Assembly (NCBI GenBank): GCA_032718475.1
Contig: JAUCBJ010006915.1
Location: forward strand, 1 to 64,000
DNA from: Nemertoderma westbladi
Taxonomy: Eukaryota > Animalia > Xenacoelomorpha
DNA length: 64,000 nucleotides
Direction of reading: 5' to 3'
Shown here: one piece after another, positions 3,140 through 42,284 of the stretch
Layout: each line of letters opens with the position of its first letter
How positions within the stretch are numbered: position 1 is the stretch's first letter
Program-made: the position numbers and the translations under genes
The notes under the pieces: model-generated
What the model was told of the DNA's origin: nothing
The model's input: only the letters and a program-made list of their open reading frames with translations
Database searches by the model: none

Positions 3140-3224
3140 GATATAAATGTACATAATATTTGGCGAATTGTAAAGATGATTGTTTTCTTGATTCTCGTTT
3201 TTTATATGGTTTTATGAGGGTTAT

Positions 3225-4777
3225 GAATTCCAGCGGGAAGAAAGGGGTGGATTTTTGAAATTAGAGGATGTGTACCTATTAATATCCAGGGAAGCGGTGG
3301 TGGAGACTCGATCCAACTACACTGACCAACACATTGTAGCAGAAGGAATCACCTTACCATCATACAACCGACAAAAACCCCAGACAACATCCACCAAGAC
3401 GGCCACTTACGCCACACCGACAGAAACCCGACAATTTTCGGACGGTAGTAAAGTATCCGCACCTATTGGGATCAAACAGACCAGACAGCAACTGAGTGCA
3501 GACTTTAGCGGTTGCCAATACTGCGAGCAGTTAGGCAAGCGGCATACCAGTCACAAGTTAAGAGGTTGTCGGCTATTTCGTGAGTTAAACTCGGAAGAAC
3601 GACGGCTACAGATACGGCCATTGGATTCTTGTTGGCAGTGTACGCAACACGGACACGTTCGCAAAGATTGCCCAAATACGGACACCTGTCCATCCTGTGG
3701 ACGCAACCATGACGGTTTGCTCCATACCGATAGTCATACGCCGACAAAACGCTTCACTAGGGAACACCCAGAAGCAGCAGCAAAATGCAATACCGCATAT
3801 AAGAATCGAGAATCGAGAACAACCCCAACTTTCGTGACACACATACGGGATTGTTTCCCGGAGCAGTCCGGATCTTCTGATGAGGAATTCGAGGACGACA
3901 ACGACAAGATGGAGACGAACAACCATCAATTGCGCTTCTGACGCCTGACCAACTAAAGGGATTTAGCGTAATTCCTGTCAAGATTACTGGCACAAAAGGG
4001 AGCAAACGGATTTACGCTATTTTAGATTCAGCCTCATCTCACAGCTATGTGGACGAGAAGGTAGCTGATGTCGTGACGGATCTCCGACAAGGTAAGAACG
4101 TCAAATACACTGTAAGTAGTATGCATGGACAACGTGCAATACCAGTGACACGAGTTAAGTTAAACTTAGACACTCTTCTTCCGAAATCGCAACATAGCGA
4201 AAGGGAGAGGTCTTTGTTACCCTTCAAGGATTTAACTTTTGCGGCCACAAAAGACTTTAGTAATCTAATGGGTCCAGTGCCAGAACAATCCTTAGAGGAC
4301 CGTAAGTATTTTAGACACCTTGGTGTACCTGAATGTCCTGTTAACTATAGATCAGTAGCAATGCTGATCGGGACAGATCAATTCAACTTACATCAAGTGT
4401 GGGAAACCAGACCATCGGTAGTCGTAGCAGGAATTGCATACGCCTGTCGAACTCCGATAGGTTGGTATACTCGAGCGCCTGTGCGCACACTAGATATAAG
4501 TGATGAGGAAGACGATGTACAAAGTACATGTAGTTTATTAACTACAACTTCGACTCATTCTTTTTCACACGACAAGGACTATACTACACTACGTTCGACA
4601 AAACACGACAACGTTACAAGTACGACGTGTGTAGCGAGTACGATAAGTCACAAAGAGCAGCCAATCCACAAGGTTAGTGTAGAGATTAAGAAGGAGCGGA
4701 GTCAGGCAGAGGATCCATCAACGATAGATGATAACGCCGGAAGGCTTGCGAGTCTACCTCAACCAATAACCTTATAA
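3225..4777 (+). pseudogene. gag: BEL Gag C-terminus (3 Cys/His knuckles) and aspartic protease, frameshifted
   Basis: CQYC..H..C, CWQCTQHGHVRKDC, CPSCGRNHDGLLH; protease YAILDSASSHSYVD at ~4012-4053 in another frame; ACRTPIGWY BEL motif. Confidence 0.9.
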
Positions 4778-4979
4778 TATATTCTTACAAAGAGCAACAC
4801 AACATTGGCCACCACTATACGATAACAAGTCTAACACTATTCCTAAGGACGCCGAAATTAAAAAACCAAAGAAAGGTAAAGCAAAGAAAAAGACAACGGC
4901 GAAACTTAAGAAGAAACCAAAGGCGAAATGGAAAAATATAACTTACAAAGTTAAGGCAGGAAGACTTGCGAGACTTTCT

Positions 4980-5270
4980 CAACCAGACGTATCGCCAGAC
5001 GGTCAACCAGTCATGTTACCAGACGATAAACCAGACGTATAGCCAGACGGTCAACCAGACATGTTACCAGACGATAAACCAGACATATCACCAGACGGTC
5101 AACCAGACATGTTACCAGATGATAAACCAGACGTATCGCCAGACGATCAACCAGACATGTTACCAGACGGTCAACCAGACATTTTGCCAGACATGTCACT
5201 AGACGTTTCGCCGGATGTTCCACGAAACATTTTACCAGACATTTCACAAGATGTTCTACCAGACATTAGT
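4980..5270 (+). repeat. 24/48-bp tandem repeat in the RNase H-integrase spacer of A
   Basis: Units ccagacggtcaaccagacatgtta / ccagacgataaaccagacgtatcg, encoding PDGQPDML-PDDKPDVS. Confidence 0.9.
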
Positions 5271-5653
5271 AACATAGTGACACATAGTAAAGCCGCAGTT
5301 TCCCTATTGGAGCGGCCTTCTATTGACAAAATACCAAACTTGACACCCTTGAGTAACCATAAGTACAGTGAAACCTCATGTATTACAGATGTGGGTAGTA
5401 CCTACGCAAATGTAAATACAGGTGTTACTTTACGCTCAAGAGACATACCAACCTTACAACCTACGGTGAGATCTGGGATTAATATCGGCACAAAATAAGT
5501 TTACCGAAACCCAGTGATCCCATAGAATTTAAACCACCATTAGGAATCGACACACAAAGTACTGACAATCAAGGTAAGAAGACGAAGAAGGACAAATTAC
5601 TCGTAAACCCGGACGGATCAACAGTCAACAAGGGAATACTTACCGGCGGACTC

Positions 5654-7234
5654 GTGGGCCCATCTAGTAAAACAAAACCTTCAAAATTCATCATTGACTT
5701 ACCTGATGACGTCATAAATACTTACGTCGACCGAATTGTAAACTTGACAGATTCTTGGACAAACGCGTGCCGAAAATTAGCGTGGATTGTACGTTTTGTA
5801 CAATACGTTAAAGGCAAACGCGACTTTACACGTCGACTTACATTGACTGAGATTGACAGATGTGAAATTAAGTTAATTCGCCATTACCAATTGCGATATT
5901 TCGCACGCGAATTCACATCCATAAGTCAAGGTCAACCAATCAAGTCGTCACCAATATTGAGTTGGAGTCCGATAATTTATAATGGCTTAATTTGTCATAA
6001 ATCTCGGCTTCAAAACATCGACTTTAATACTGATTTTAGATACCCGATAATAATACCACAACATCACGAATTACAACGTGCAATGATACTGGACGCACAT
6101 TTACATCTGAAACACGCTGGAAGACACCACTGTCTTTCATACTTACGTACAAAATTTGTATTAATTAGACCCAGTAAAGCGCTAAGTTCAGTGACACGTA
6201 TGTGTATTATTTGTAAGAAGGTACATTCTAGAATAAGTACCCAAGAAATGAGTGAACTTCCACAAGCACGACTACAGGCATTCAGACCACCTTTCACAGA
6301 GACTGGAATTGACTGCTTTGGTCCCATACATACGAAACGTGGACGTATACTAGTAAAACGCTGGGGACTGATTTTCACATGCATGTCCAGTAGGGCAGTT
6401 CATATTGAACGTGTGATGGATCTTTCCACCAACGCTTTTATACTAGCATTGCGGCGATTTATCGCTAGACGCGGACTAGTAAAATGCTTGTACTCAGACC
6501 AAGGTACAAACTTTGTTGGTGCTCGAAATGAAATTGCTAGAGCCTTTAAGAAATTAGATCATGATCAAATCTCAAGCAAACTACGTCCTTACAAGATTTT
6601 TTGGAAGTTTAATCCTCCAGATAGTCCATGGAGAGGCGGAGTCTGGGAGAGATTGATTAGATCTATAAAAACAGCCATGGCGAAAGTAATTCCAGTAAAC
6701 CACATCTTGACAGACGACCAACTGACAACATTGTTTGTTGAAATCGAGGCAATACTAAATACTAGACCAATAGTATTAGTACCCGATGACAAACAATCCC
6801 AGTTTGCTTTAACACCGGCACACCTGCTGATGCAGGCATCAACTTCATTAATGCCTATTTCGATACCAACAGAAAGCGATAGCTACGGTAGAAAAGCGTG
6901 GAAAATCACGCAACTACTGGCTAACAAATTCTGGGAAATATGGCAAAACCATTATTTGCCCTCTATTTCTGCCAGAACAACCTGGTACAACAATACTCGC
7001 GCTTTAAAGCCGGGAGATCACGTGCTGTTAGCAGAAGTGAATTTAAAAAGACGCTTCTGGATAACAGGTGTAATTTTAGACACACATCCATCTATGGATG
7101 GAGTGACAAGAACCGTGACGGTACGGACAATTGACGGTCGTACAGTAGACAGACCGACTCAACGTCTCGTACTTCTTGAAGAGACTCGAAACAAGTCTGG
7201 AGATTACAAGTCTCCAACTAATGTTAGTAAATAG
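5654..7234 (+). CDS. pol: BEL integrase (HHCC, DDE, C-terminal BEL domain)
   Basis: HLKHAG..CIICKK; TGIDCFGP; YSDQGTNFVG; WKFNPPDSPWRGGVWERLI; LNTRP; FWEIW..YL; RPTQRLVLLE. Confidence 0.95.
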   Translation: MGPSSKTKPSKFIIDLPDDVINTYVDRIVNLTDSWTNACRKLAWIVRFVQYVKGKRDFTRRLTLTEIDRCEIKLIRHYQLRYFAREFTSISQGQPIKSSPILSWSPIIYNGLICHKSRLQNIDFNTDFRYPIIIPQHHELQRAMILDAHLHLKHAGRHHCLSYLRTKFVLIRPSKALSSVTRMCIICKKVHSRISTQEMSELPQARLQAFRPPFTETGIDCFGPIHTKRGRILVKRWGLIFTCMSSRAVHIERVMDLSTNAFILALRRFIARRGLVKCLYSDQGTNFVGARNEIARAFKKLDHDQISSKLRPYKIFWKFNPPDSPWRGGVWERLIRSIKTAMAKVIPVNHILTDDQLTTLFVEIEAILNTRPIVLVPDDKQSQFALTPAHLLMQASTSLMPISIPTESDSYGRKAWKITQLLANKFWEIWQNHYLPSISARTTWYNNTRALKPGDHVLLAEVNLKRRFWITGVILDTHPSMDGVTRTVTVRTIDGRTVDRPTQRLVLLEETRNKSGDYKSPTNVSK

Positions 7235-7660
7235 TAAGGAGTTTACAAATAGATTTCCACGTACCTGTACACTGTAGTAAAGACAGCGGTAGAATTCCAT
7301 TGTCTTTATATGTGAACATTGAGGGTAGTACCCTTATGTGTCACATAGGAGCGGGATTTGTAGGTATAAGAAATGGAATTCTACTTGGAACTCACAATAT
7401 TGAGACATTTTCTAAATTTTAGACAATCCATTTGGATTTGAAAAATTTTTAAAATTTTCTCCAGTGAATAGATTTCAGGGTACAGTCGGGTGGAACTTAA
7501 AATTAGAGAAACAAGAGAATGGAAGACTCGCGAGCCTTTCTTAAATTTAATTCAATTTTACACAGTCTTGTTTCAATAAGTTACGTCAAATAATAGACTT
7601 CCCTATATTTATTACTAACTCTTGATTGCTTATTTTCTGATAATAGTTTGGGATCAAAAA

Positions 7661-7863
7661 GTGAGTATTTTAGACTCACAGCCAGTTTAGCCCAAATTCG
7701 TTTTTATTTCGGCAAAAATTTTAGATAAGAAACAGTGTGTCATTAAAGAAACCCTAGATCTTAGGCTATGGGTAGGAGGTTGGAGCGTTGTCGAGCCAAA
7801 GGGCAGACGAAAACTCTCACATCTCCTCACAACTAACAATAAACTCTGTTGTATTCCCTCTAG
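7661..7863 (+). promoter_or_regulatory. Predicted intron in the ORF3 leader of A
   Basis: AAAA|GTGAGT donor at 7661, CTAAC branch point at 7833, pyrimidine tract plus TAG at 7861-7863. Same signals at equivalent places in B (19190-18989) and F (52504-52318). Confidence 0.55.
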
Positions 7864-7894
7864 TAGCAATGATTATGTAACCATACTTCAAATA

Positions 7895-10800
7895 ATGGCG
7901 AAGGGGATACATGGAGAGCCGAGATGGGGATATGATATCCAAGAGGAAGCAGCAGCGCCATTCGAACGGTTTGGAGCTAAAGACTACACCATATTTGGTA
8001 TAAAGGATTTATCAGAGAGTACAGCGAAACTCGCAAAGACTAAATATGACTAGAACGTATTAAAGAGAAGGCAAAACGCGTTAAATGAAAGAATCGAAAG
8101 TTTACGCAAAACCTTCAATGAACTTTACCCGTACGACGCTTTATGTGATACGGGAGATATTAGCGAAGACCCCGATACCGAAATTAGTCGTTTGTATCAT
8201 ACCATGCAATACCTGAAGGCGCATGAACCTATGCCTGCGGTACGCGATGAATTCGATGGAATGCATCTTTACAGACGAACTCGAGGGGACGATAGAGAAA
8301 CGAAGGAAGCATTTTCAGTTTATAAACTTTATTATCAATGTGGTGCTTGTATGCGCGAACAACGAAATGCGATTCCGATGCGTTTGAATAAGGAAAATCC
8401 CGAACCGATATTGGCGCGGTGTTCGAACCATCAACAACTACGCTACCAGGAAGGAGGGTATCCTTTATCGAATCCATATCATTCATTCGCTATGTGTGGA
8501 CCAAAGGCGGGAGAAATTGTCGTTTACCCACCTAAGGTTGTTGAACCCGATGCATTTGAACTTGCGCTGGACGAGGCGACTCAGTCAACCCGCGAAAAGA
8601 AAGAAGCTCTTAGCCTATACAGAGCCTATAAGGCTTTCGAGAAAGGTGAGATGAAAGAATGGGGCGGAAGACTCGCGAGCCTGCCTACCTTACCATTGGA
8701 CGTCACACGATCAAACTTCAGCTAAGGAGATGACACCGGAAGTTTTCGAAAGTATAAACTTTGCTCAAAACGTTATTCAGAGACTACAGATTGCATCCCC
8801 GGAAAGGACAAGAGAAATGCAACCGTATAGTACTTCGACTACGAAACCATTGAGTACGACACTCAATTTCCCTATTAGTATACCTACGACGTATGAAATA
8901 CCTATTGTGGATCATCCGGAAATCATTTCAAACTTAGAGTTTCTTCCTGCAGTCGTTCTAAGCGATATGGTTAAGATATATGATTTATGTAGACATATTA
9001 CGCAAAAGGTCGTGCATAATGTTCCACCTCATATTCAAGACTTTAGGGAACTGGATAGAGCTGGCGCTGATATAGCTCCGAGTAACCTGAAAGGATATTT
9101 AACCAGAACAATTCGCTTATGGATTGGAACAGGAACCTTTGAGTCAGATACAGATATTGCTGCGGACTGGCAAGGTAAAGTCATTTGTTTCGAGGACGAG
9201 AAAGACATCGAGAAGATTTGGCAACCTTCGGAAGAATTACTGGACGAATGGAATAGGACGTTTAGATCGTTTCAAGAAAATGGTTACATGTTTTATGACA
9301 ACGAGGGCGGCAGCCATCAGCAGAGTCTGACCTCCAAGACTATACAAATTAGAGCGGCAGACGGAGTTTTGCACGTTTTCAGTAGACAAAGGAGCGACAA
9401 GCGAATGCCGATACCTCCAGGAACTACCAAGCGGCACCATTTCATCACTAATATAGTAAAGAAGATGGACCAGGCTTGCAATATCGATGCTAGAATGTTA
9501 CCAAAGATGGTGAGAAATATGATTTTAGATAACACTGTTGTAAAGATTGGATCAGGAGTAAGAGAGGACTTAATTAGCGACTTCGCCGGCATGTCGGACA
9601 GTGACGACCGATTACCGACACCTTACGTCGACACTCGACCTCTTATACTGTGGTCTATAGAACAAGGATACTTCCGTGAGTATGATACTCAGAAAACCGG
9701 AACTGGATACATTTCCTATTTGATGTTTAATTGGGATTACAAGGAAAGTAAAAGAACAAAGTATATCGAAACGTATGGAGAAGGTGATACTCCGGATATA
9801 AATGAGTTTGAATCACAGCTTAAATGGAGAGGATGCGTATATTGGGCTATTACTTCACCTCCAAGAGCAGTATTACAATATTATTTAGCGATAGAGTCAT
9901 CAGTGAATGTTTGCTTAGTCACCGACATTGTGTCTCGGACTCTTAAAAGACATCCACTTTGTCTCGGAGAAGATCATACATTCTACGCGGAAGGGAGAAT
10001 TCATACCGATGTGTTTAGACGGTTTCTCGAACCCTTCTTCAATTCCGACGCTCAGTGTAATGCCTTCACTCGAGCAGGATTTAGTATATTTCGAGACGTG
10101 TATCTTCGCTGTGCGGGATCTCTTATCGAAAGACCATCTATGTTTACATTGTTACCCTATGAAGGAGAACGTATCATGGAGCTTACGGACAAATCACGGC
10201 AGACGCGCGCGCCTATCGGTCACTTAGGTGATGATTTCGAAGTAACAACGATCATTGACGATCCTTTAGAGGAACTTCTTGAGATTGAAAGGTACCTCCC
10301 AAAGAAATCTCAGACGGAGATTCGACAACTAGAAGCAACAGATGCTGTAGTTTGCATACAACCTTCTGAAACATACCAACCTATCGATCCAGACGATTAT
10401 GACTATAGTGTGGGAGGAAGCGCTCGACCCATTGGAGATCTTATATATGAGCGAGTGTGGTACCCTGCTAATACGATGTGTGGTAAATGTGGCGTCGCTG
10501 GACATCATTCGACAAAGTGCAGTGGAAAGCACATTACTACGACTCAACTAATCTGTGGATGGTGTGGAGATCAAGGGTCTCATACATTTTATACTTGCTG
10601 GAGATTTATGGCTCAATGCACATACTGCAATATAAAGGGACATCGAGCATCTGAATGCCAATTGCGAGACATACCTTACGAACACGAATCTGTAAAACTC
10701 GTGCGAAAACTATTTGATGATTGGGAATATTTGGCTGACGAACATGTATCGGCGCAAAGAAGATGATTCCCGATGAGAGCGCATCTTGGATTGTGGGCGG

Positions 10801-11609
10801 TAAATCCCCAAACTATGATGTCAGAAGGATATATCTCAGCTATGCCACAATATGACGAACTTATCGAGGTAGTTGATATTTTGCCTCACGATAGTGGATT
10901 TCGAGTTGTGCGCGAATACTTGTTACAGATTCACCCCGACAATAAGAATACATGGAACTTCCAGAAAGTAGTTAATCGTATCACATATGGTGAATTTGAT
11001 CATTTCCGAACGGAAAAGCGGAACAAGGGAGCTTGGTTAACCGTCGCATGGGCGTACCGAGCCACGTTCTACCATAAACGTATACGAGCGAGCGTATTCG
11101 AGGAAGAGGAGGTCCTAGAGGCGACCAACATACCAGCTACTCCGGTCGCGCCGTCTGCACGTCACCCTCGGGAGGACAGACAGCATAGGATCATAAGGGT
11201 TCAGAAAGTGGGCCAACAATTAAAGAAAACTATCAATGTTGAAGAACGAAGGGGATACGAACCGACTATTCGAATTACTCGAGATACGGTGTCGCTTCCC
11301 AGAGAACCGCAAGGAGGATCGGGACATATACCAGCTGATCAAAAGGGGGCGCAAGCTTCTCTTGGGTCTGCGTCGTCCGCTTCCCGCGCGTTCCCAGACG
11401 TTTTACCAGCGGTAGACACAACAGATCGGTCACGAGGAATCGGACGAGGATTTGGGATAACTAAGAGACGAATATGTGAGGAAATGGTCGTACCATCTCC
11501 CAACGTCCAAAGTAAACCGGTGACTCGCCCCACAAGTCCTATATCACGAGCTAAGTCACCGATACGCAGTTTTCGAGGACGCGGCAGGGCTCGATCCGCT
11601 AAGCGGTAA
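7895..11609 (+). pseudogene. ORF3 of A: DEDDy 3'-5' exonuclease plus CCHC zinc knuckles (~1200 aa, two stops, one frameshift)
   Basis: ATG 7895 (MAKGIHGEPRWGY, homologous to B and F starts); stop 8051; frameshift ~8690; stop 10764. Motifs FYDNEG, TIQI, LPKMVR..VKIGSGVREDL, YVDT, W..SPP..QYYLAIES; three CX2CX4-5HX4C knuckles; RGRGRARS tail. Confidence 0.85.
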
Positions 11610-11705
11610 ATAAAGTGTTATATATAAAAGGACTAATTATTCCGAACTCGTAAACTCATGTAAAGCGGGAAGGAAGGAGTGGACGGAAGACTCGTGAGCC
11701 TTTCT

Positions 11706-11990
11706 TTGTATTGTTTATGTAAATTGTATTGTTTATGTAAATTGAATTGTTTATGTAAATTGTATTGTTTATGTAGATTGTTTTGTTTATGTAAATTGTA
11801 TTGTTTATGTAAATTGAATTGTTTATGTAAATTGTATTGTTTATGTAGATTGAATTGTTTATGTAATTTGTATTGTTTAAAATTTATATTACTCTAAATT
11901 TATGCAATTTATATTGTTTTAAATTTATGCAATTTATATTATTCTAAATTTATGCAATTTATATTGTTCTAAACTTATGTATTTGTATTG
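11706..11990 (+). repeat. 18-bp tandem repeat in the 3'UTR of A, degenerating into ~22-bp units
   Basis: (ttgtattgtttatgtaaa)n followed by aatttatattgttctaaatttatgc-like units. Confidence 0.9.
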
Positions 11991-12595
11991 TTCCAATTTT
12001 GAAATTCAGAAAGTTTTATATTTAGAAGGAATTTATATTTGAAAGATTTATATTTTATATTTGAGATGCCAAAAGAGTTTATATTGTTCTAAACTTATGC
12101 AAAAGATTTATATTTAGAAAGTGCTATATTTGTAGTCATTCCAAACTTACGCAATTTATTGTTTCGAATATTATGCAATTTATATTTTATAAAGAAGCAG
12201 TATTTGTATTCGCAGTAAATAGAAGGCAAGAGCAGACGGAAGACTTGTGAGCCTTTCTTGTGACTTATTTGAAATTATTCCGAACTTATACAATTTGTTT
12301 TATATTTAAGTAGTATTAGTATTTGTGATTGTTTGAATTTATGCAATATTTGAGATGCAATAGATTTAATTTGGTGAATTTAATTTAGATTTATATTGTA
12401 CTTACTTAATAAAGCCTTAAATACGTAAAGTTTGAATCTGTAATTATTTTGTATCGAATCATTATGTAAAGGTATTATTGTTGAGATTTAATTTGTAAAT
12501 ATGTAAGTACGTCCCAAGTATTCCATAATTTGATTTAGTATTGGTGAAAACCGTATATTTTATGCACGATAATATCCTGTTTTCATGGAGCGGTA

Positions 12596-13352: not shown

Positions 13353-15076
13353 CCACAATATTCATTCTTAAGTTATTCACCCATCGCCTGAAAGGTTAGA
13401 CAGCGTTCGATGCCTTGCTACCTAAGTGTAAGACCAAAGATCGAAGGTAGAGGTAGTGACACGCTGTGCGCTAAAAATTACATCTAGGGACTGTACTGTC
13501 TTGATTCAGGAAAACCCGCAGAAGACCTTCACATTCCTACGGGAGGAAGAGGAGATCAGGCAGAAAGATACTAGTACACAGATAGGACGCAGGCACACCA
13601 GTACAAAGCATACACATTGGTAGGGTACAGCAAACTGTACGCCTAACTCTTGCTAAGTATAGGTGCGTCGGTGGCTGTTTGTAGTACAACGGTGTCCATT
13701 TGCGTTAGAACTTGTAGGCTAGAGGGTTACTGTGTTTTACCTGAATTAGGATTGTACCGTTCAGGCGGTAGGGCAGTTTATTACTAGGCGCAAAATAAAT
13801 TGAGGCTATTAGGGATACTAACATCTAATGTGTCCCCGCCGACATTCTGTTAGGAAGTTGCCGTGCCCATCTAGGCAACCAAAATTCTAGATAGGACGCC
13901 AGGCTAGCTATTAGTAACAGTACGCCTACTGTAGTAAACTAACACATTTATTCTTAGTATTAGGGACCTGGTAAATTAAATTGCCGAATTCTGGGCATAG
14001 TATTAACCTTATGCCTGAATTTGAGTTCTGGAAATACACAAAAGGGGAAGGAGCCTTATCATTCGTGAGTATTGGACCTACAAGCTACAAATTTAGAATA
14101 TTTGTAAAATGCACACCGGACCCAGTAATTATATATGTGAAGGATCTAAAACCGATTTTGACCGTTAGAATCAAGACACACGCGCGTTAGAAATTATTTA
14201 CACCTCAAAATATATAAAATAATTTTTGTCCGTACTGCGCTTTGCCCGCTGGTTATACTTTTCTGCACCTAGCTAGCGACTCTCTATCCCAACCATATAA
14301 ATCACACCGCGGCAAAGTATACGAGCGCTTTAGTCCATCAGTGAGTCAGCCTGATTTTAGGATTCGCTGCGCGGGATTTTGTTTCATCGAAGTTTGTCCG
14401 TTTGTAGACTGTTTTCTGCCTCACCGGTTATAAGAGACCGATACTGCAATATATATTCGCTTACTTAGAGTTTACTGTTTTGGTGAGAAGGTCGGATTAT
14501 GTTTTGATTCACAAACTTTACAGTAGGATATTGCAGGGTATTTTGTTACTGTCTCTTCAAATACAGTAAGTAAGACTGTTTTCACCAATCGAAATACAAA
14601 CTATTTACAAATACTTCTAAATCTACTGGTGGGGCCTAAAATATAAAATAATCACTATCTAATTATTGCATACTTAATATTGCAGGTACGGCGTAAATAC
14701 AATCCATCATACATACAAATACAAATTTACCAATCAACTTTAGTGCATAAAATACAAAAAAAGCTTTCGGTTATCAAGATAAACAAATTAAACAAATCAG
14801 AATAAAATAAATCAAAACAAATCGAACAAATAATTTCAAATCTTTCAATAAGTTTTATATATTGTAAATATACATAATAAATTCACTAAATTAAATCAGT
14901 CCGAAATATAAAATAAACATAATGCGCTAATAATCTTTCAAATAAGTCTTAAAGTGTCCTCCTGACGATCTAAAAGTTCGTCCTGCTGGTCTGGATATCT
15001 TCTCCTGAGCACTAATTGCTAACGGTAGGCTCGCAAGCCTTCCTTCTTTATCTTGCTCCTCCAAAACCAACGTCCG

Positions 15077-15215
15077 ATATAAAACCCCAAATATAATATC
15101 CAAATATAAAATATCCAAATATAAAATATCCGAATATAAAATGTCCAATATAAAATGTCCAATATAATATCCAATATAACATCCAAATAAAATATCCGAA
15201 TATAAATATCCAAAT
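15077..15215 (-). repeat. ~15-bp tandem repeat in the 3'UTR of B
   Basis: (aatataaaatatcc[a/g])n on the + strand, flanked by two palindromic motifs. Confidence 0.85.
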
Positions 15216-15251
15216 CGGTAGGCTCGCAAGCCTTCCTTTCTTCTCGCTTTC

Positions 15252-18200: not shown

Positions 18201-18951
18201 CTCGATCTCGCCTTTCTCGTACGCCTTGTATGCCCTGTAGAGGCTCAAAGCTTCCCGTTTCTCTTGCATCGACTTATTAGACTCGTCCACTACCATGCTG
18301 TAGACGTCTGGTTTGACTAATTTGGGTTAGTAAAAAAAGATCTCACCCGCGTTCGGTCCACTCATCTTAAACGAATGATACGGATTCGTCAAAGGGTATC
18401 CGCCTTCCTGGTAACGTAGACTTTGGTGGTATGAGCATCGCGCTAATATCGGCTCGGGGTTCTCCGAGTTCAACCGCATAGGAATCGCGTTGTCTTGCTC
18501 GCGCATACATGCTCCACATTTGTAAAACAGTTTGTATATGGAGAACGCGTCCTTTGTCTCTGGATCCGCTCCTCGAGCGCGTCTATAAAGATGCATTCCT
18601 TCGAATTAGTCTCTGGCTGCAGGTAAGGGTTCGTTTACCGTCAAATATTGCAGCATATGATATAATCGGCGGATCCTCGCAAATGTCACTAGCGTCGCAT
18701 AATGCATCGTAAGGATATAACGCATTGAACTCCGCGCGTAATTCCTCCGTTCTTTTGTTATAAGCATCCAATCGCTGTTTAGTCACATTCGGGTCCGCCT
18801 TGGATTTAGCGAGCTTGGCTGTACTCCTAGCCATACTCTCCACTCCAAACACACTAAAGTTTTTAGCTCCATAACGATTAAACGGCGCCTGGTGCTCTTG
18901 TTCCTGCGTAAACCCCTGACGGAACTCCTTATAAATCTTCTCCTCCATCAT
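15252..18951 (-). pseudogene. ORF3 of B: DEDDy exonuclease plus CCHC knuckles, several frameshifts
   Basis: ORF pieces 18583-18951, 18327-18596, 16920-18296, 15950-16786, 15442-16011 and 15252-15548 align in order to A ORF3 (FYDNEG, VKIGSGVRDDL, QYYLAIES, CTYCNIKGHRASEC, RGRGRARS). Confidence 0.85.
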
Positions 18952-19689
18952 ATACGCGTATATATGGTTACATATTGTTACGTTTCTACTAGATGAAGCA
19001 CAAAATAGAGGTTAGATGTGAGGTGACTTAGAGTTTGTCGGCTTTTGGCTCAACTTTGCTCTAAAACCCCAACCCATTTGCCTAATGACTTCGGGTTCGT
19101 GTGATTTCGCACTGGCTCCTAATCCAAAAAAAAAATGTGCCGATAAAAAACGAATTCTGGGTAAACTAGCCGCGAGTCTAAAATACTCACCTTTTAATTT
19201 CCCAAACTACATTCCCAAAGAAATAATGCAGTCGAGAATTAATTCGGTCTAAATAATAGTAGACACGACTACGTAGAACAAGGCCGATTTTCTTTTCCAA
19301 AAAAAATTTATCGGTAGGCTCGCAAGCCTTCCATCCGCTCTTGTCCTCCCCAATTTTAATTTTTATCTAGCTGTATTCTAGAATTCGCATTCACTGGAGA
19401 ATCATTTTTCTTAAATTTAAATCCAACTGAATGGATTTGTCTAATAATTTTTGAAAAATTGTCTCACTTGTGGGTTCCAAGTAGAATTCCATTCCTACTG
19501 TACACACAATCCCGCTCCTATGTGATACATAAGGGTACTACCCTCCATGTTCACATATAAAGACAATGGAATTCCACCGCTGTCTCTATCTACAGTGAAG
19601 AGGATTACAAATGCACATACAGTAATACAAAATACTAAATTACTAAAATACGGTAGGTCTATGTGGCGGCCAACAAAGGTCCCACATCT

Positions 19690-20825: not shown

Positions 20826-21030
20826 TAGGGCGGTGCGTTTTTTACTTTTTTTTCGATTTCATTGTTCTACCGGTGCACAAAAGTTGCCAAATGGTAAAAA
20901 AATAAGGCAAAAAAAATTTCTTCCAATTTCGTCTATATCTTCACGGATCCCAAGAGGGTTGAAATTTTGTGCCATCGCGATGCACCATAATGAAATTTAT
21001 AACAATATAACACATTGATGAAAGATCAAT
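20826..21030. mobile_element. DNA transposon terminal fragment at the B/C junction
   Basis: Begins TTA-GGGCGGTGCG, AT-rich and non-coding; integrases of both B and C break off at its edges. Only one end is recognisable. Confidence 0.45.
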
Positions 21031-27000: not shown

Positions 27001-28333
27001 CTTTTCTTTCCATTTCGGCTGCTTTTCTTTTCGCTTCTGCCGCTGCCGCTGCCGCTTTTCTTTCCGCTTCTGCCTCTGCCGCTGCCGCTTTTCTTTCCGC
27101 GTCTGCCTCTGCCGCTGCTGCTTCTCTTTCGGCTTCTGCAGCTGCTACTGCTGCTTTCTTTCTGTCTTCTATGCGTTTTTTCTTCACCCTTTCTTCTTGG
27201 TCTCTAGCGATGCGGAGTTGTTCATCGAATTTAGCTTGGTTCGCCGCTAACCTATCCACGTCGATGGCGTCAAGCACACGCTGTGCTCCTTCACTATTAG
27301 GGCTAAGTCCATCTAGCCTTCTCCTCAACTCTTCATCTCCCAAAAAACGCTGATAGTCTGACAGATAGATGTCAATGGCATCCCTCTTATGCGGTTTCTC
27401 TGCCGTCGCTTCACTTTCCACTTGGGAAAAAGTAGCGTCTGTTGATTCTCCATGGGTTGAGCGCTCCTCCAGCTGAGCTTTCCACTGAGCTGTTCCTTGA
27501 ACCTGGCGACTCACCCGTTGAAACCAAGTCTTTACGGCAACTTGCAACGACGTGTCTTGTCTTCTTTTAGAAGCCTCCTCAAAGGCCGATAAGATTAGCC
27601 TAATTCGCAGAATTCTTTCTCTAACTTGATAAAGCAGTTGTCCCTGCTCTTAAGGTCCTTGAGGTTGTTGAAACAGTTGTTTTTCTACTCGCTCCATAGA
27701 GCTGAAGAATCCCTGTGCGTATCCGGCTGCGGACCTCTTCCACACAGCTGGATCGATGGTTTCCTTGGCTACTCCCATCCGGTGTATGTCTTCCCAGGCA
27801 GCTTCTGATAAATCAAACGGGAGTCCGGGTCCGGGGAAGTTCCATTGCGACTCGACCATAGACTTCAGTTCTTCCCTTGTATATCCCTCATAACTATCTT
27901 TAGTTGATCGCTTACTTCTTGCCCAATCGATCTGGTGTTCTTCCACCGCGATCAATAACCTAGTGAGTACGGCTGCAGGAAGGATGAGAAGGGGATCCGA
28001 ATAAACCGCATCCGTCATCCTTGCTCCGCGCTCGGGTGTCAGCTCTACAGTATCTTCACTACTGGAGCTGTTGGGCCGCTGAGAAATAAGTTCTTGGCTC
28101 GCGGGTTGTTGCTGTTCCGCTGCTTCTTGGTCCCGCTTGACCTGAGCTCGAGTGCCTATGATAGACCTACGATGTTGGACTAGCCTAGGTTCTGCTGTTA
28201 CTACTGGAGGGATGACCTTCCTCACAGTGGGAGGTGAACTGAACTTAGGACTAGACGGTTCTACACCTCTATCTGAGTCGCAGATAGTTACATCTAATAA
28301 ACTGTCTGACAGGTTCTGCTTAGTATCAGACAT
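21031..28333 (-). pseudogene. pol: Gag-Pol of C, one frame with two premature stops (27650, 23300)
   Basis: KFNGDEMKW (DUF1759-like Gag); CALCDGTH, CYNCLRHGH, CAKCGAKHH; ALLDSGS protease; RVVFDGSA, DIEGMFLQV, YMDD RT; LHVFGDAS, WTDA RNase H; GVDLFGP, SDKGTNF integrase. Confidence 0.93.
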
Positions 28334-29672
28334 GTTTGTTTACACAGTTGAATGCCTACTGCTATATTACAGTCTAAGCAAGTCTAGTAATTCAGCCTTA
28401 ACTGCTAGCCTAGTAATTAATTACCGATACTGCTACTCAGTGTAGCGTGATATATATAATATTAGAATACCGGTATGCTTATGGTATATATAAGTATTAT
28501 TACAGACTAGGTTTTTCACAGAAACCGGTATATAATTTTAGCACAAATATATATAAATATATAATAGGCCTATCGTGGATACCGGTATGCAGTTTACACT
28601 TATAGTATATATAAGTATAATTATTAACTAGAATTAATTACAGAATACCGGTATGATTTCAGCTTAAGTTTATGAAAATAAAGATAATAAGCCTATTGTA
28701 AATACCGGTATATCAATTATTTTAAATAATTGAATTTCTGAATTTTAAGGGTTACTTGGTTACTTTAACTTACTTTATTACCGTTATTTAAGCAGTAGTC
28801 CAACTGATATTGAGACCTAATTGTTGTATGGCAGGCCTACTATTTATAAATCGTTTGAGTTGATTTATAATATATATATACCCGTTTAATGGGTTTTGTT
28901 AATGTTTGAAATAAATGTTATTATTTCTGGGGGAGTCACTACACATAAGCTGTGCGCTCTCAGTGGAGTGCTACTTGTTAGACACTAAAACAAATAATTC
29001 TAATTTACCTAAGTTACTTAATACTACAAATTACGTACAATTCAGGTTGAGATTACAATCTCTAAATAAACACAAAAATTTAATTACAAATACACAAATA
29101 CGAATTTTTAGGGTAATTTTACAAGAAGTCTACTAACCAGCCTAACAAAGGGTTAGAATATCTGGTTATTACAACGGACAGGTTACTACGGTATTTGAAA
29201 ATAATAAGTAGTAGTAAATATACTGCGTTGTCCAGATAGGAAAATACCACCGCCTGACGACCTATAACCGTATCGCTATAGGTACTACGTTATGTATCAC
29301 GGAGTGTCCCTACCTAGAAGTTAATTACCGCGGTCTACCAGAACCAACGTGCCTATTAACCACTTTACAACACAAATACACTGCCTACACACTAATTGCT
29401 TTCGGAAAGCACTGTACACTAAACCCTAAATTAGGTACAAGTACTTGTATAACAAATAATTAGTAGTTAAAAATACTTGAACAGCTAAAAGAACCACGGC
29501 ATCTGCTGGAGTGACCGGTGCACAAAATCACCAGTCTTTACCTACGCCGAGCAGCCCTGATGTAGTACCGGGGTTAGTTTAACTATAACGGTATGTATAA
29601 CAAACACAATTACTGTAGGAATAAACTTGGGGATATGAATGTTGCGAATAATCGCATAAACTCTGAATAATA

Positions 29673-30170
29673 AATATTACGCTACGCGTACAAACTACTC
29701 AAACAAAATGCAGACCAAATACTGACAGACTACTATCAAGCCTAAAAAAAAACTACGGTATATGCAGACTCCGAAATGGTTAAGTAGTATGCGTTCTAAC
29801 CCAGTAGTACGACTTATTCTTTAGATGGGGGTTTACCTTACAGCTATGGCTGCCCCTACTTCCTAACCGTTCTTTATCGGACAGATGCTTTACACACACC
29901 GAAATTTCCTCAAACCCAACAGCAGCCAGACAACTATCCAGCCTACAAATTATCTAAATAAAATTATACGCTACCCGTACAGACTACACAAACAAAGTAC
30001 AGACTAAACGATGGCAGACTACTATCAAGCCTAAATAAACCACAGGACATGCAGACTCCGAAATGGTTAAGTAGTATGCGTTCTAACCCAGTAGTACGAC
30101 TTATTCTTTAGATGGGGGTTTACCTTACAGCTATGGATGCCCCTACTTCCTAACCGTTCTTTATCGGACA
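29673..30170. repeat. ~200-bp direct repeat pair in the leader of C
   Basis: 29673-29883 versus ~29962-30170; the core atgcagactccgaaatgg...ctttatcggaca is almost identical. Also ~58-bp ATACCGGTAT-containing repeats at 28460-28715. Confidence 0.9.
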
Positions 30171-31909: not shown

Positions 31910-32560
31910 GGCTAATAAAGATATTATAATAAAAAAATGTGACTATGATATGAAAAACACACCATAGCACAGAAAGTATAAATGATGAAAAAAATATTTT
32001 GTAACCAACAGAAAGCCAATTAAATTCTAGGAAAAGTCAATGAATTTCATAATAATACATAAAAATCATCATCATGAATTTCTAAAAATAAAAAGTGTTG
32101 GGCAGATTCTGCCCAACCCCAGGTGGAATAGGGTTAATGGGGGCATTCGGGGTCGCTAATTTCATTTCCGATGTCAGTTTAATTTGATGGAATGTCGTAT
32201 GTCCGTCTGTCAGTTGTCTGTGTGTCTTTCTTTCTTACATTCTGACAGACAGATTGGCAGACAGATATTCCATGATAACTCGAGAACTAAAGGAGATTTC
32301 TCTAAGCCGCTTTCAGATTTGAAATCCCCATTAAATTATTAAATTCTGCTCTAGATGCAATAAAAAACACAAATTTATGACATTTTTAGCAGGGGGGGGG
32401 GGGGGGTGGGGTTAACCCCCCCCCCCCCCCCCCCCCCCCCCTTGATAAATTCAAAACATTCTATAACATATTATTTATTATTATTATTATATTCTCATGA
32501 GTAGGAGGGAAACACAAAAGCGATATCCCTATGAAATGTCTCAAGACATATTGTGTAGCA
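31910..32560. mobile_element. Fragments of non-autonomous DNA elements
   Basis: piggyBac-type end GGAATAGGG-TTAA at ~32125-32137; GGGGTCGCT and GTCCGTCTGTC motifs typical of Helentron/DINE-like repeats; G-run/GTTAAC/C-run palindrome at ~32392-32440. Confidence 0.4.
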
Positions 32561-32567
32561 TATTTAA

Positions 32568-34107: not shown

Positions 34108-37100
34108 TTAAGGCGTACATGGTGCAGTTGGGGCTGTCCCTGGCTCCGAAAACTCTTACCTGCATTTGGTAAGTTTCTGGCGGAAGTTCTAAATTTCCGT
34201 CCGGATACCAAAGAAACTGTAAACTGTCCCTGTCCCGCTCCAATGCCTTAACCTGGTGAAACATGGCCTCTACGTCACAGGTGAAAGCCACTTTGCGTTG
34301 TCTAAAACGCATTAGGACTCCCATGAGGTAATTATTCATATTCGGCCCGTCCATCAATTCGCTGTTCATAGACATCCCTTGAGTCGCCTCAAAGCAAGTG
34401 GGTAATTGTTAACGAGCTTAGGTTGTCCATTGCGCCACAACATGCCAACCTCATAGTGGCCATTCGCGGTCCGGCGAATGGTATCTCTCATAATATTTAA
34501 TGACCGTTTTTCCTGTTCTGACATAGCGGTCTCGTAACTACCGGGTTCTGCTGAGTCCTGTTCCAACCATTGAATGGTCCGTTCAGTCAGCAGTCAGTCA
34601 AGCGCTGCTTGCACTGCGCCATGGTCCTCGTCCACGTCTTCGTCCGCTGCGGTGGCTAGTGTCAATGTGTCTGGTAGGCTCGCAAGCCTTCCGGTGTCAC
34701 TAGTCGGCGTCGAATCGTCTTGTGGCGGTTTGACAACCTTTTGATCTGTCGGTAGGCTCGCAAGCTTTCCAAGATCAATGACCGGTGTCGAAGCCTGGTG
34801 GGTGGGGTCAATGACCTTCGGATTTTTTGGTAGGCTCGCAAGCCTTCCAAAATCCTCGTTCATCGAGTCATCCACAGCAACAACCCTTTGGCCTTCGGTA
34901 GTCAATACAACCTGGTTTACTGCAAGTAGTTATAAGTCAGAGGCCCGTATGGTCATGTCCAGATCAGTTACGTCAGTATCGGTGGCGTCTGCGTTAGCGA
35001 TGCAAGTCTGTCGTAGTGCAGTCTGTACAATTGGACCACGGTAGTGTGAATGAGAATTATCTATAGTGTTAGTCAATAAACTACACGTACTCAAAACGTC
35101 GTCCTCCTGGTCACTTACCTCTAGTGAACATACTGGTGCTCTAGTATACCAACCTATGGGAGTTCTACATGCGTAGGGGTTGCCCGCTGTAATAACAGAT
35201 GGGCGTGTCTCCCATACCTGATGTAAGTTAAACTGGTCTGTCCCAATTAACATCGCAATAGAATGATAATTAACAGGACATTCCGGTATTCCAAGGTGTC
35301 GGAAATACTTAAAATCTTCCGGTGATTGCTCTGGCACAGGGCCAAGAAAGTTACTAAAGTCCTTCATAGCTGCAAAGGTTAAATTTCTTACCGGAAGTAA
35401 TGAGTGCTCCTCCTTGCTGTGTTCCGCTTTGGAAAGAAGAGTGTCTAAGGTTAGTTTTACTCTTGTCACTGGGATCGCTCTCTTACCATGCATGCTGCTT
35501 ACAGTATACTGAGCAGTCTTACCTTGACTCATGTCCGTAACCACGTCGGCTACTTGTTCGTCGACATAACTATGTGATGACGCAGAGTCTAAGATAGCGT
35601 ATATATGCTTGCTCCCTCGGGTTCTGGTAATCTTTATAGGAATCACTCTAAACCCTTTCAATTGGTGCTGTGTGAGGAGTGTTACCGATGGCTGTTCCTC
35701 ACCCGCATGCACGTAAAATGTGTCGTCTTCCTCCTCGTCCTCGTCCGATGATCCCGATTGATCCATACAATCCGCGTAGAAAGTACGAACCTCGCGCGCG
35801 GCGAACGCTCCTTATAAAGCGCGTCGCATCTAGCCGCTTTATCTGGATGCTCTCGTCGAAAGCGTCTGGTCGGAGTATGACTGGTTGTGCAAAGTAACGC
35901 GTCATGGTTACGTCCACACAGAGGACATGTATCGTCGCTCGGGCAATCCTTCCGGACGTGTCCTGGCTTCGTACATCTCCAGCAAGATTCCAAAGATCGA
36001 ATTTGAAGTCTTCTCTCTTCGATTCCTAACTCCTTAAAAGCGCGACATCCACGTAGTTTATGTCCGCTATGGTTTCTGCCGTTCCTCTCGCAGTATGAGC
36101 ATCCCACAAAGTCTGCCGGCAACTGTTGTCGTGGCTGCGTGGTGCCGATAGGCGTCAGAACTTTAGAAGTCTCAGTAGGGGTGGCGTAGGTAACGGCTTT
36201 CGCATTCGTTGGAAACGGTTTAGTCCGAGTCGGCGCAGAAATAGCTATCCCTTCTGCCGCAATATGGTGATCAGTATAGTTCGATCGAGTCTCGATCACG
36301 GCCTCCCATGAAATCAGTTGGTAGACGTCGGTGAGTTTCAGTAGCCCGCCGGCTTCTTCACGCTGGTACTCGATGCGTCGCCATTCTCGTCGAAGTCGAT
36401 GATGAAGTCTACCGATTATTCGAATGAGAACTGTCGGTGCGTTAGCGTATTCGAGTTGTCCAATGGACCATAAAGTCCCTATAGCGTTTTTAATTTCGTC
36501 CGTGAGTCGTAAAAGGTCGATCAGTTTCAAAATGCTGTCTCCTCTGCAGAGGTCTTCAATAATGGATTTAGCCATGGCGACGTTACCTCCGTAAATCGAA
36601 TATAAACGGTCGTATGCCAACTCAAATGCATCTGGAACACCGATAAAGGTTTCCGCTAATCGTTTCGGCTCACCAGACAGGACTTGGAGTAAGTGTTAAA
36701 CTTCTCCGTTGAGGTGAAAGTGCACTTAGCGATCTGGGACTCTACGTAGTCTACCAGTGTTCGCCAGTGTTTCGCGTTGCCAGAGAACTTCGGCGGTTGC
36801 TGTGCCGGTAATCCATGTCTAGCCGCGAATTTCACAATCTCGCTAACCAAATCCAACTGTCCGCGTCCCTGTTCGGTGGTGTCGTCCAGTTGTTCGTGAT
36901 CGATCCGACGGTTGCGCTTCGAGTCGCTCTTCGAGTTGAGCTAGTCGGTCTGTCATCTCGGTGAACTGTTTGGCGCTGATCGTTTCCACTGGTTGCAACG
37001 TGGGTTTCCGAAAAGGTGTTTCTCGTGGAGGATTGTCGATGTAGGGGTTCGTCGATCTCTCCTCCCGTTTGTAATCAGCCTCTGCTGCCGCTCCAGTACG

Positions 37101-39981
37101 GAATACTTCCCGTTCCGTCGACTCCGAGTCGCTAGATGAGTCGCTGTCATCCGGATAAGGTGGTTGACGGGTTCGCGTCTGGCGTATTACCTTTTGTCTC
37201 ATTTGTTGGGGTCTAGAATCTGTGGTTCTCCGTCGTTCGGTAGGCTCGCAAGCCTTCCACGAAGTCATAGGTCTTGTTAAACATTGTTCGATCCTGCGGG
37301 TACTACCCACATCTGTCCTCCTCCGTTGTTCGGTAGGCTCGCAAGCCTTCCACGAAGTCGTAGGTTGCGTCGAACATTGTGTCAAAAGTCGAGTAAAGTA
37401 GTCGGGTTTCGTAGTCGGTCTATAAATAACTGGGTTCGCACAGCACGTCACAGGTTTAACTGCTAACGGCTTACTTACCTGTTTAATTGTCATAAACTCA
37501 GGTTCCTCTCTTCCTACAAGTAGACTACGAATTACTGTAGGTGGACTAGATACATTACCTGCTAAAATTGGCGATGAAGTTGCCCTAGGTTGCGGTATTT
37601 CCGTCACAACAAACCTGTTACCTTGCGTCGAGCGCACAGGTGTTAATTCCTTAGGTTTCGTAACAAAGACCGGTTTTATCGGAGTCGTGGGTTTGAGCAT
37701 AGGAATCACTTGTGGAAAACGTTCACAGTAATCCTCGACGAACTCATCTCTTCGATCCATCGCTCCAATACTTCCTTCCTCGATTCGCTTCTGTATCCCG
37801 CGATATCGAGCTTCCAGGTGATCCAGGGCAGACAAATCGTGCGCTGCCTCGCGCGATATTCGATTCAATTCGAACTGTAGTTGCATCTCCCTTTCGCGTC
37901 GATCTGCTACTTGTTGTTGTGCCGCTAACTCCGCTTCTTGTATCGCTAGTCGAGCGTTAATCTGTCTCACTTCCATCTCGGCGCGAGCGTCAGATGCCGC
38001 TTTCTTCCGAGCCAACTCCGCTGCGTTTGCTGTCGCAACTCGTGCTAATTCATTGGCTGCAGCTTCTCGTGCCAAATCTTCCTCCAATCTTCTTAACTCC
38101 AAGGCATCGACTTCTGCTTGCGCTTTGAGTTGCGCAATCTTCGCCTCGTCTTCTCTCTGCTGTTTCTCTCTCTCGATGGCGATCTGTGCCATCTGTCGTT
38201 GCGCTTCTTCCTCGAAGACTTGTTGTCGGCGTGCAACTTCCTGTTGTTGTCGAGTATTGTCAGACGCTGTTCTACTATCGTCGCCAACGTCGCTTCGCAT
38301 GCTAACGAATGATCTATCCATCGGTGGATTTTGGTAGGCTCGCGAGCCTTCCGTAGTGATAACTTCCGTCGTCCCTCGCGGTTCGACTTCCGGTTCTTCG
38401 ATCAGTACGCCGTTTCTACGAAGAAAATTGGTGAGCATCTCCAACCTCCCGTCCAAGCAATAAAGTTCTTCTTCCTCTTCGGGTTGTAACAACGCGTCCG
38501 AAACTGACTCACCTAGCAGTTGGTCGAACTGCTCCTGTTGAGCCAATATTATTACTGACTTAAACTGGATAATGCTTTCTCTCGCACTTACCAACTTATC
38601 TATTATCTTTACCTGAGTAAAGTTGTCGCCACGCAACTCTGCGAGTTCGTGTAAACCTTTCAGTTTATCTACGGAGGCATGTACCCTTCTTTCTATCCTT
38701 ACCTGTAAGGTGTAGAACTCGTATCTCGACATCGGGGCGGTTAACTCGCGTAAAACGCGAAAACCTTCTCCGAGGTTTCGAGTAATCTGGGCCATGTGTC
38801 CTCCTATACTTCTAATGACATTTTCTTGGCTTCCCGCCAAGCTTACCATGTCTGGTTCCCGTGACCTGGTCTGCGGGATTGTAAGGAAATCCTCGATCCT
38901 GCCGTCGCCATGCATTGCGGCTTCCGGTATTTCCGTTTGGGGTACCGGCGACGCACGCGGTGTGACATCGGTGGAATCTCGGGTTCTCCTTCTCGGTTCG
39001 TCTACTGTCGATATGTCCGGGTCGCACGAGTCATAGTCGGTAGGGGGGTATTGAGTCGAATGCGGTGTGTCACTCATGTCTTATTATATACGTCAAGTAC
39101 GGGTAATAAAATGTCAAAGTATCTGAATGTTGAAATGTCAAAATTACCTTGGTATATATATAGTATATATATACCCTAACCGGTACAAATAAATCAACAA
39201 AGTCAGAATGTCGAAATGTCGAAATGTCCAAATGTCAAACTTACCTTGATATATATATATATCATATAAATACCCTAACCGGTACAAATAAAACTAACAA
39301 AGTATATAATAAATATGTAATAATCTAGCCTACCGGCTAAATTTGTACGAATAAGTGAGATAACGGTATACGTTACCAAAATGTAGATCAACAATTACAA
39401 ATAATAGGCAAAACAGCAACGTCTAACGGCAAAATAAGTACCAACAACACTACTAATTAGACAGTGAAACCCACAAAACTACTGTGCTTTCTTAAGTTTG
39501 AACGACATGAGTCGTAAAACTTACGCTCCTTTGATCTTCCAGTCGTGCAAATTCCCAAATACAAACCGGACGTGGGTCGTTCCGTTTTTCGGCGGCGCGG
39601 ACGAATTTTTTGTCTCCCAAACTTTGCGAAAAGCGGTCTAATCCTCGAAGCGGTCCAGAAATGAGTCCTTGAGTCCTGAAAAGTCGAAGGTGAGAGTTTT
39701 ACTTCTACTCTACGAAAAATCTTCCTAGGTACCGATACAACTTGGTCTTTAAACCCTATGTACCTTTTCAAGTACCGAAAAGTAACACCGCACACACACG
39801 GCGTAAAACAAAATGCTACAAACTAACTATTAGCTAGTCAAATATTAAATACGAAACTACTAGCTACCCTAAAAGCCTACTGAAGCAGGGGACGTTTTAC
39901 AAATTACTAATTTTTACTAACCTTAAATTTTTAAATATCTCCTACTTACAATAGCTAACAGTATGACTGTGTTACGGTATA
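34108..39981 (-). mobile_element. BEL/Pao element D (5' half: leader, Gag, protease, RT start), A/B lineage
   Basis: Gag/protease closely homologous to A; shares the A/B palindrome; leader cut by LTR E at 39982. Confidence 0.9.
34112..39077 (-). pseudogene. gag: Gag-protease-RT(N-term) of D, frameshifted, with internal RT deletion
   Basis: PPKFSGNAKHW; CSYC, CWRCTKPGH, CPLCGRNH; YAILDSASSHSY; YEVGMLW, GPNMNNYL, DVEAMFHQV, VFGARDSP. Deletion at ~34378 relative to F. Confidence 0.9.
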
Positions 39982-42283: not shown

Positions 42284-42284
42284 T

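Follow-up and report, generated by a model that had tools for sequence, protein, structure and literature searches.

Family-specific palindromes at conserved sites in BEL/Pao retrotransposons of Nemertoderma westbladi as a candidate RNA tag

Introduction

To our knowledge, little is known in long terminal repeat (LTR) retrotransposons other than yeast Ty1 of how an element discriminates its own RNA from that of the host or of a sister family. That question is raised by a stretch of 64,000 nucleotides (nt) from Nemertoderma westbladi (GenBank assembly GCA_032718475.1, contig JAUCBJ010006915.1, positions 1 to 64,000; the window), in which broken LTR retrotransposons are piled up and in which an initial annotation had noticed a 20-nt palindrome repeated 18 times through three elements, referred to here as A, B and D. 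What are these palindromes, and what might they be for? The results given here come from sequence analysis alone and concern two motif types in this one window of one genome. They identify the repeats as a real, selected feature, and they suggest a family-specific RNA tag that may be read by a protein of the element itself.

Copies of the palindrome in elements A, B and D

All 18 coordinates listed in the initial annotation were correct. Seventeen of these places match the motif within three mismatches, giving 32 strand-matches at that threshold, compared with a mean of 0.00 and a largest count of 0 in 100 dinucleotide shuffles; the remaining copy, at 10198, had been called degenerate and was matched at five mismatches. 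The copies had also been reported to keep a single orientation relative to element sense, and the better-matching strand was indeed the forward strand in A (seven of seven, including 10198) and the reverse strand in B and D (11 of 11). Reading of the motif in all three frames was likewise recovered, with the peptides GRLASLP, WKA[CR]EP and EGSRAY. The single consensus that had been proposed fits B and D, where ten of the 11 copies are exact and all have the CCTACC end, but it does not fit A, which has a variant of its own with A at position 6 in six of seven copies. The description of the motif as a palindrome holds for a dyad but not for a perfect one, in that positions 3 and 18 form an A-A mismatch in all 11 B/D copies.

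In element A (forward strand) the hairpins are located after the protease (4739–4758), in the linker past the end of RNase H (4959–4978), between pol and the third open reading frame (ORF3; 7521–7540), at two sites within ORF3, namely site a (8666–8685, where the frame of A's ORF3 changes) and site b (10198–10217, the degenerate copy, with a loop-closing G-C pair in place of T-A), and twice in the 3' non-coding region (11685–11704 and 12238–12257). Element B (reverse strand) carries two copies in its 3' non-coding region (15024–15043 and 15217–15236), one each at ORF3 site b (16631–16650) and site a (18172–18191), and one between pol and ORF3 (19313–19332). In element D (reverse strand) three hairpins, at 34673, 34751 and 34829, belong to a tandem repeat with a 78-nt unit that follows the protease (34673–34848), two, at 37239 and 37332, are in a 93-nt duplication in gag (37239–37351), and one is in the N-terminal part of gag (38333–38352). 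Five of the D copies are thus the product of two local tandem duplications, so the 18 copies do not represent 18 independent origins.

Short tandem arrays start directly after several of the copies (4979–5266, 11706–12000 and 15087–15213). Their units are 24 nt long in the pol linker of A, 18 and 25 nt in the 3' region of A, and 15 nt between the two 3' copies of B.

Another palindrome in element F, at matching classes of site

The motif had been considered to be confined to the A/B/D lineage and had not been noticed in elements C, F and G. Within the window, the absence is correct for that particular sequence, but the confinement is wrong, and for F the absence is misleading as well, because F carries another palindrome, CCAAACC-YRYG-GGTTTGG, at seven places (identified by a k-mer and hairpin scan and then by follow-up) that fall in the site classes of A/B/D. 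Six of these match within three mismatches and seven within four, compared with shuffle means of 0.02 and 0.1 and maxima of 1 and 3. As a control for having picked the F pattern after the fact, the largest family of similar hairpins was determined for each element; it had seven members in F, five each in B and D, and one each in A, C and G, with no more than 1–2 in 30 shuffles of each.

The F hairpins, all on the reverse strand, are found in gag (63937–63954), after the protease (62286–62303, with one compensatory change of an A-T to a G-C pair), in the linker after RNase H (60050–60067), between pol and ORF3 (52586–52603, extended stem within 52571–52618), at ORF3 site a (51472–51489, with an extended stem within 51457–51504 and in the codon phase of A 8666 and B 18172), at ORF3 site b (49878–49895, in the codon phase of A 10198 and B 16631) and in the 3' non-coding region (48368–48385, extended stem within 48353–48400), the gag and non-coding sites corresponding to those of A/B/D by class only. 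Their spacing is 1.1–2.3 kb once element G, which is inserted in F, is removed. A further F-type hairpin (45098–45115, forward strand) is present in fragment E (44797–45276), which is gag-like as judged by eye only. In the alignment of ORF3, GRLASLP stands opposite KPAGLEL and WKAREP/QTRAP opposite QTRGFG, and the codon phase of the loop is identical. For both types together, 17 of the 26 sites are within gag, linkers of pol, ORF3 or fragment E, and nine are intergenic or 3'.

The possibility that each copy is an independent micro-insertion, which the initial annotation had named as a way for its reading to fail, was not supported: there are no target-site duplications (flanking direct repeats are 0–3 nt long at all 26 sites), and sites in ORF3 are in gap-free codon register with the F site. 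The architecture predates the A/B/D lineage, and its sequence is family-specific. When a covariance model built from the eight F-type sites was applied, the best locus elsewhere had E 0.08, and no convincing extra site was obtained in C, in G or in A/B/D.

Conservation as nucleotides and concerted change

When differing site classes were compared, identity of the arms was 0.99 within B/D (51 pairs), 0.82 within A and 0.82 within F. Between A and B/D it was 0.80–0.84, and between B/D and F it was 0.28 and no higher at matching sites (nine pairs). Given the high identity within B/D and within F and the low identity between the two, each family has changed all of its sites together. Fourfold-degenerate positions are only 29–42% identical between A and B/D, near saturation, and since the arms (80–84% alike) are kept far above this background, the sites are conserved as nucleotides, in agreement with the level of constraint that had been proposed. 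As judged by eye, compensatory transitions separate the two types at their inner five pairs, and no relationship is apparent between their outer pairs. Polymorphism provided a weak test, which cross-assignment from other motif copies could bias: in 34630–34890, 15 places differ in other copies, the sole one in a motif being private to the window copy, and when copies in three runs were considered none of 11 polymorphic places was within the 60 motif bases of that interval (p ~0.06).

In a functionless origin, the repeats would have been spread and homogenised by template switching of the reverse transcriptase or by quasi-palindrome repair. The homogeneity of B/D stops sharply at the motif edges (5' flank identity 0.255 versus 0.253), which argues against such spread, although the A copies do share some 5' flank (0.37 versus 0.26, p 0.002), some copies were made by tandem duplication, and inverted template switches can create local stems, all of which are consistent with it. 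Sites are nevertheless kept at matching positions across families whose synonymous sites are saturated, imperfect pairs have been retained and not repaired, and nothing similar occurs in C and G. We consider a functionless origin hardly credible. A short pattern in the 5' flank is common to the F sites as well (identity 0.44 versus 0.25, 0 of 2000), a comparison made post hoc.

Predicted RNA structure

Twenty sites were folded, and the hairpin was predicted at seven of seven F sites, seven of seven B/D sites and one of five A sites; at the fragment E site it was not predicted within 40 nt and was predicted within 48 nt. The predicted fold is a YRYG loop on a stem of 7–8 base pairs, to which, in F, a further stem would be added with an offset of 2 nt on the 3' side. 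This second stem is made by the flanks of the F sites and varies from site to site, with cognate duplexes at -12.3 versus -6.9 kcal/mol when flanks of different sites are paired (permutation p 0.00035), and none of 400 random-site sets and none of 400 letter shuffles paired as well. In a gap-free alignment of the eight F-type sites, 75% of cells were paired and 11 of 18 pairs were changed on both sides; for the lower stem the latter number was ten of 11 pairs, and covariation was 0.33 versus 0.18 (0 of 500 shuffles). Six offsets were tried, among which the 2-nt 3' offset alone was significant (p 0.003). Dispersed stem-loops with a shared motif were seen along the element in silico in F and B/D, and not in A. 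In a search of Rfam with E values up to 1, the 14 matches obtained were confined to a poly-G/C run at 32276–32517, and no motif was matched.

The offset of the F lower stems invites comparison with hairpins that recruit a host RNA-binding factor for localisation or export, such as the I-factor signal that is bound by Egalitarian (Egl). According to the part of the source available, Egl reads bent stem-loops with bulges on the 3' strand and needs two elements per transcript (PMC13186709). However, a single host factor would not drive a pair of families within one genome to different arm sequences, each internally uniform, and Egl signals, in the same partial text, are without overt sequence conservation (PMC13186709). 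Recruitment of a host factor is in our view very unlikely.

Loops, strand and comparison with DNA operators

The loop sequences at the 26 sites are TGCG (12), CGCG (8), TGTG (4), CGTG (1) and TATG (1). Loop position 4 is G at all 26 sites and its mirror position 1 is T at 17, and the variation consists of 23 positions with T for C against one with A for G, counts that are not independent of one another. One-sided variation of this kind is not predicted by a symmetric double-stranded site, and, together with the single orientation, it is the basis on which we argue for one strand. The consensus of the YNMG tetraloop fits only 20 of the 26 loops. Resemblances to splice sites, REP/RAYT, p53 sites and recombinase sites fit one lineage or a part of the motif only and were dropped.

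The strand argument bears directly on whether the palindromes are double-stranded DNA operators, at which a dimeric element-encoded protein would keep its family transcribed in the manner of VANC (in Arabidopsis VANDAL DNA transposons) or as has been proposed for the repeated motifs of Sireviruses (plant Ty1/copia elements). Dyad symmetry, family-specific sequence and tandem amplification in 78- and 93-nt units resemble VANC targets and Sirevirus motifs, as far as these are described in the portions of text available (PMC5735166; PMC2829016). In addition, the A copies retain their sequence while RNA stability is lost, and the 5' flank shared by the F sites could be an extra half-site. A DNA operator, however, needs neither the site-specific lower stems of F nor the compensatory pairs at single sites (10198 and 62286), and the single orientation and one-sided loop variation are also against it. 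Furthermore, domain-library searches recognised no DNA-binding domain in ORF3, and the observed/expected ratio of CpG in these elements is 0.8–1.2, a lack of depletion, so that the elements bear no mark of the arms race over DNA methylation that underlies VANC. We regard DNA operators as unlikely; should the tag be one, it would parallel VANC in an animal.

VANC, in the available part of its description, shares a family-specific short multi-copy motif, partly in tandem, beside an element-encoded accessory gene, but its motifs are 8–9 nt long, non-coding, DNA-bound (binding having been shown) and linked to DNA demethylation, whereas those studied here are palindromic and known from sequence alone and, instead of being restricted to non-coding regions, are largely in coding sequence (17 of 26 in coding or gag-like sequence) (PMC5735166). 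Sireviruses, in the excerpts available, have element-specific palindromes of 10–20 nt in 8–32 copies with a shared core, together with an extra ORF, and are similar in these respects; by contrast, the sites in the window are single and are spread through the coding sequence of gag, pol and ORF3 at corresponding positions, the loop being conserved, the arms exchanged and the lower stems of F covarying (PMC2829016). Sirevirus motifs form clusters in the LTR and before the extra gene and have a CGG-CCG core, whereas the sites in the window are dispersed and single and have a YRYG core.

Pairing among the hairpins themselves, between two RNAs or between two sites of one, could serve dimerisation or compaction through kissing or extended duplexes, and no protein would then read the sequence. 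With G-U allowed, each of the five loop sequences is self-complementary as sense RNA, a family would become homogeneous if every site had to be able to pair with every other, and Ty1, another LTR retrotransposon with self-complementary, hairpin-forming RNA, dimerises via its palindromes PAL1 and PAL2 (PMC6844567, in the part available). Yet the A-A mismatch of all 11 B/D copies and the A-C mismatch of A weaken pairing and are conserved all the same, like-with-like pairing requires no homogeneity between different sites, and PAL1/PAL2, as described in that part, are a few sites near the 5' end and not one sequence repeated along the element (PMC6844567). Such pairing is, in our estimation, quite unlikely.

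A candidate RNA tag and its possible reader

On balance we think it somewhat more probable than not that the hairpins are a family-specific RNA tag read by a candidate protein encoded by the element. The multi-copy cis signal of the initial annotation has thus stood as the best reading, strengthened by the F counterpart and the covarying lower stems, and the step that it would serve may be packaging, dimerisation or another. It is likely that the selected palindromes at the seven conserved site classes act as stem-loops in element RNA. RNA would be the working form, and an element-encoded zinc-knuckle protein would bind the stem-loops and so pick out the RNA of its own family; several copies of the protein may load along the transcript and sort it into the particle or transport complex of the element. 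Tag and reader would have changed together, and such joint change would explain how all sites of a family switched at once. Uniformity within families, difference between them, fixed mismatches and a stem-loop are the outcome to be expected of an RNA binder that reads sequence and co-evolves with it. The dispersed packaging signals of RNA viruses are similar in that several stem-loops with a common recognition motif occur along the genomic RNA, but they share only aspects of a motif, whereas here the copies of one family are almost the same over 18–20 nt; the available part of that source names no LTR retrotransposon that has signals of this kind (PMC6281560). By analogy, the hairpins might work like dispersed packaging signals and evolve like VANC or Sirevirus motifs.

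As the reader, we slightly prefer ORF3 over Gag. ORF3 is present at 7691–11609 (forward), 15442–19011 (reverse) and 48423–52300 (reverse), and is ~1200 residues long, with three CCHC knuckles following a DEDDy-like domain. It is under purifying selection, with 67–70% amino-acid identity and saturated synonymous sites. Its one real homolog among 1.84 billion representatives is P0002 (phmmer E 1.6e-4, 32% identity), which has the same order of a nuclease-like domain, three CCHC knuckles and a similar C-terminal part. Residues 45–275 of P0002 align to the RNase D (PF01612) and Pol I exonuclease domains (Atlas TM 0.59–0.62), and by homology the DEDDy fold is probably shared by ORF3, whose own models are of low confidence (pLDDT 31 and 36). 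Putative catalytic motifs were read by eye, using the spacing of DEDDy motifs: D-x-E and a second D are present, and A, B and F end the series with Y-x3-E, where P0002 has Y-x3-D. The middle domain of ORF3 had no Pfam match, two word-index searches gave no relative other than P0002, and PDB, PHROGs and NCBIfam gave nothing significant. P0001, the other of the two matches in the representative library, was rejected as an ORF3 relative, as it matches the knuckles only.

The LTR retrotransposons Juno and Vesta of bdelloid rotifers likewise have, downstream of pol, an ORF3 that is not an envelope gene and that encodes a DEDDy-type exonuclease domain, according to the part of the text available, but those lineages are not BEL/Pao, and the ORF3 described here has ~1200 residues, three CCHC knuckles and a last acidic motif of Y-x3-E (PMC5408684). 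In that source the role of the rotifer ORF3 was left open, and the word 'hairpin' does not occur (PMC5408684). In Egalitarian, as the available text describes, the binding of bent stem-loops can be aided by a domain with exonuclease homology, and RNA binding by ORF3 through such a domain would be an analogy only (PMC13186709).

Several observations weigh against the RNA tag and against ORF3 as its reader. The sites are not independent of one another, given tandem copies and shared ancestry, and the register of the lower stem was picked from the same eight sequences. The A copies fold poorly, the hairpin-family test gave none in A, and A is without a lower-stem signal (322 of 400 controls as good); moreover, five of seven A copies have an A-C mismatch that corresponds to a G-U pair only on the antisense strand. 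In B/D the lower stems give a weak signal, equalled by 15 and 31 of 400 controls and with p 0.07 at the offset seen in F. The flank test of F was equally significant on the antisense strand (p 0.0003), and the non-Watson-Crick stem positions are ten G-U on the sense versus seven on the antisense strand; because antisense scores are alike and G-U pairs are split in this way, folding energy does not settle the strand. As for the reader, the N-terminal part of ORF3 is 51% identical between A and F although their tags differ, and ORF3 is tied to the hairpins solely by co-occurrence in three elements. The sister element C has no hairpin family in the portion present, but its ORF3 region is missing.

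A more specific proposal, which we put forward tentatively and with considerable doubt, is a self-recognition code in which ORF3 reads the hairpin on its own RNA and co-evolution rewrites the sites of each family together, even in coding sequence. If true, it would be an RNA-level counterpart of the plant VANC system. Two natural versions of the tag at matching sites in one genome provide a ready-made specificity swap (F versus B/D hairpin and protein), and the tag, if real, would give the exonuclease-fold ORF3 cargo a testable job.

Searches in other sequences and reports

The A/B/D pattern was found in one viral-contig and 28 metagenome-contig stretches of the searched collections, none of which was similar to the window by tblastx. 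These 29 loci were ruled out as relatives and considered unrelated hairpins, with 28 having a single site and one having a second, loose match. As the collections are mostly prokaryotic, this says little about other animals. A stretch of phage contig L001 (3834–5547) resembles a diversity-generating retroelement, with an accessory gene, a reverse transcriptase and one copy of the 20-mer between genes that is probably due to chance. No peptide trace of either motif was present in 75 proteins. No report of a dispersed hairpin in BEL/Pao elements was found in a search whose coverage mostly excluded subscription papers, Repbase reports and supplements, nor was one found of an exonuclease/knuckle ORF3 cargo in BEL/Pao; the available part of a BEL/Pao survey contains neither 'palindrom' nor 'exonuclease' (PMC3118150).

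Elements and other features of the window

Pfam matches placed A, C and F in BEL/Pao and G as Gypsy-type. Peptidase_A17 (E 2.7e-38 in F) and DUF1759 were matched in both F and C, and DUF5641 (E 1.5e-21) in A; nearly all of the 73 listed relatives of pol carry PF05380 together with these Pao-type domains. Elements B and D were placed in BEL/Pao by their 63–79% protein identity to A. They may be one subfamily, considering their common motif variant and the lack of overlap between them. In an integrase tree of 48 rows (four from the window and 44 retained from the 45 best of 65 matches), the window elements formed a separate branch with the topology (C,(F,(A,B))), with supports of 98/96 (the A+B+F+C branch) and 98/92. 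Contigs from four runs cover the A–B stretch in many variants, consistent with multi-copy families.

The order gag, protease, reverse transcriptase, RNase H and integrase is present in F and C, and A, B and D are partial but collinear. No LTR pair was found within the window for A, B, D or F, the copies being fragments; the sole pair in this comparison is that of G (267 nt). Element A (3192–7234, forward) has the end of gag, the protease and the integrase, and is followed by its broken ORF3 (7691–11609), with a conserved N-terminal part, the DEDDy-like domain (~9243–9938), three CCHC knuckles and a basic tail. Element B (15442–20841, reverse) comprises integrase and a broken ORF3, and the broken element D (34109–39080, reverse) comprises gag, protease and the start of the reverse transcriptase. 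Element F (48423–64000, reverse) has gag, truncated at the window end, pol and a broken ORF3, and is split by G (54494–59893, reverse), whose LTRs are 99% alike and which was inserted between the RNase H linker and the integrase.

The reverse transcriptase and nearly all of RNase H are missing from A: at 4760–4790 the post-protease linker jumps to the last RNase H residues, the end of RNase H being weakly matched at 4782–4859 (E 0.007). Gag, protease, integrase, ORF3 and the hairpins are retained despite this loss, which could represent a non-autonomous subfamily or a single deletion. A deletion from motif to motif was ruled out as its cause, as the RNase H end resumes ~25 nt past the 4739 copy.

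Three other features were observed. An inverted duplication of ~2.8 kb at 41335–47979 (arms 41335–44147 and 45422–47979, 91–96% alike) flanks the gag-like fragment at 44797–45276. In element C, a 229-residue frame of no known family (27650–28339, reverse) is in frame upstream of the 1449-residue gag-pol, with one stop between them. Lastly, an open 566-residue ORF at 948–2648 (forward) begins with a region rich in proline and glutamine and contains a cold-shock domain, matched in Pfam at E 1e-8, and downstream of it are more similar-looking repeats with cysteine pairs.

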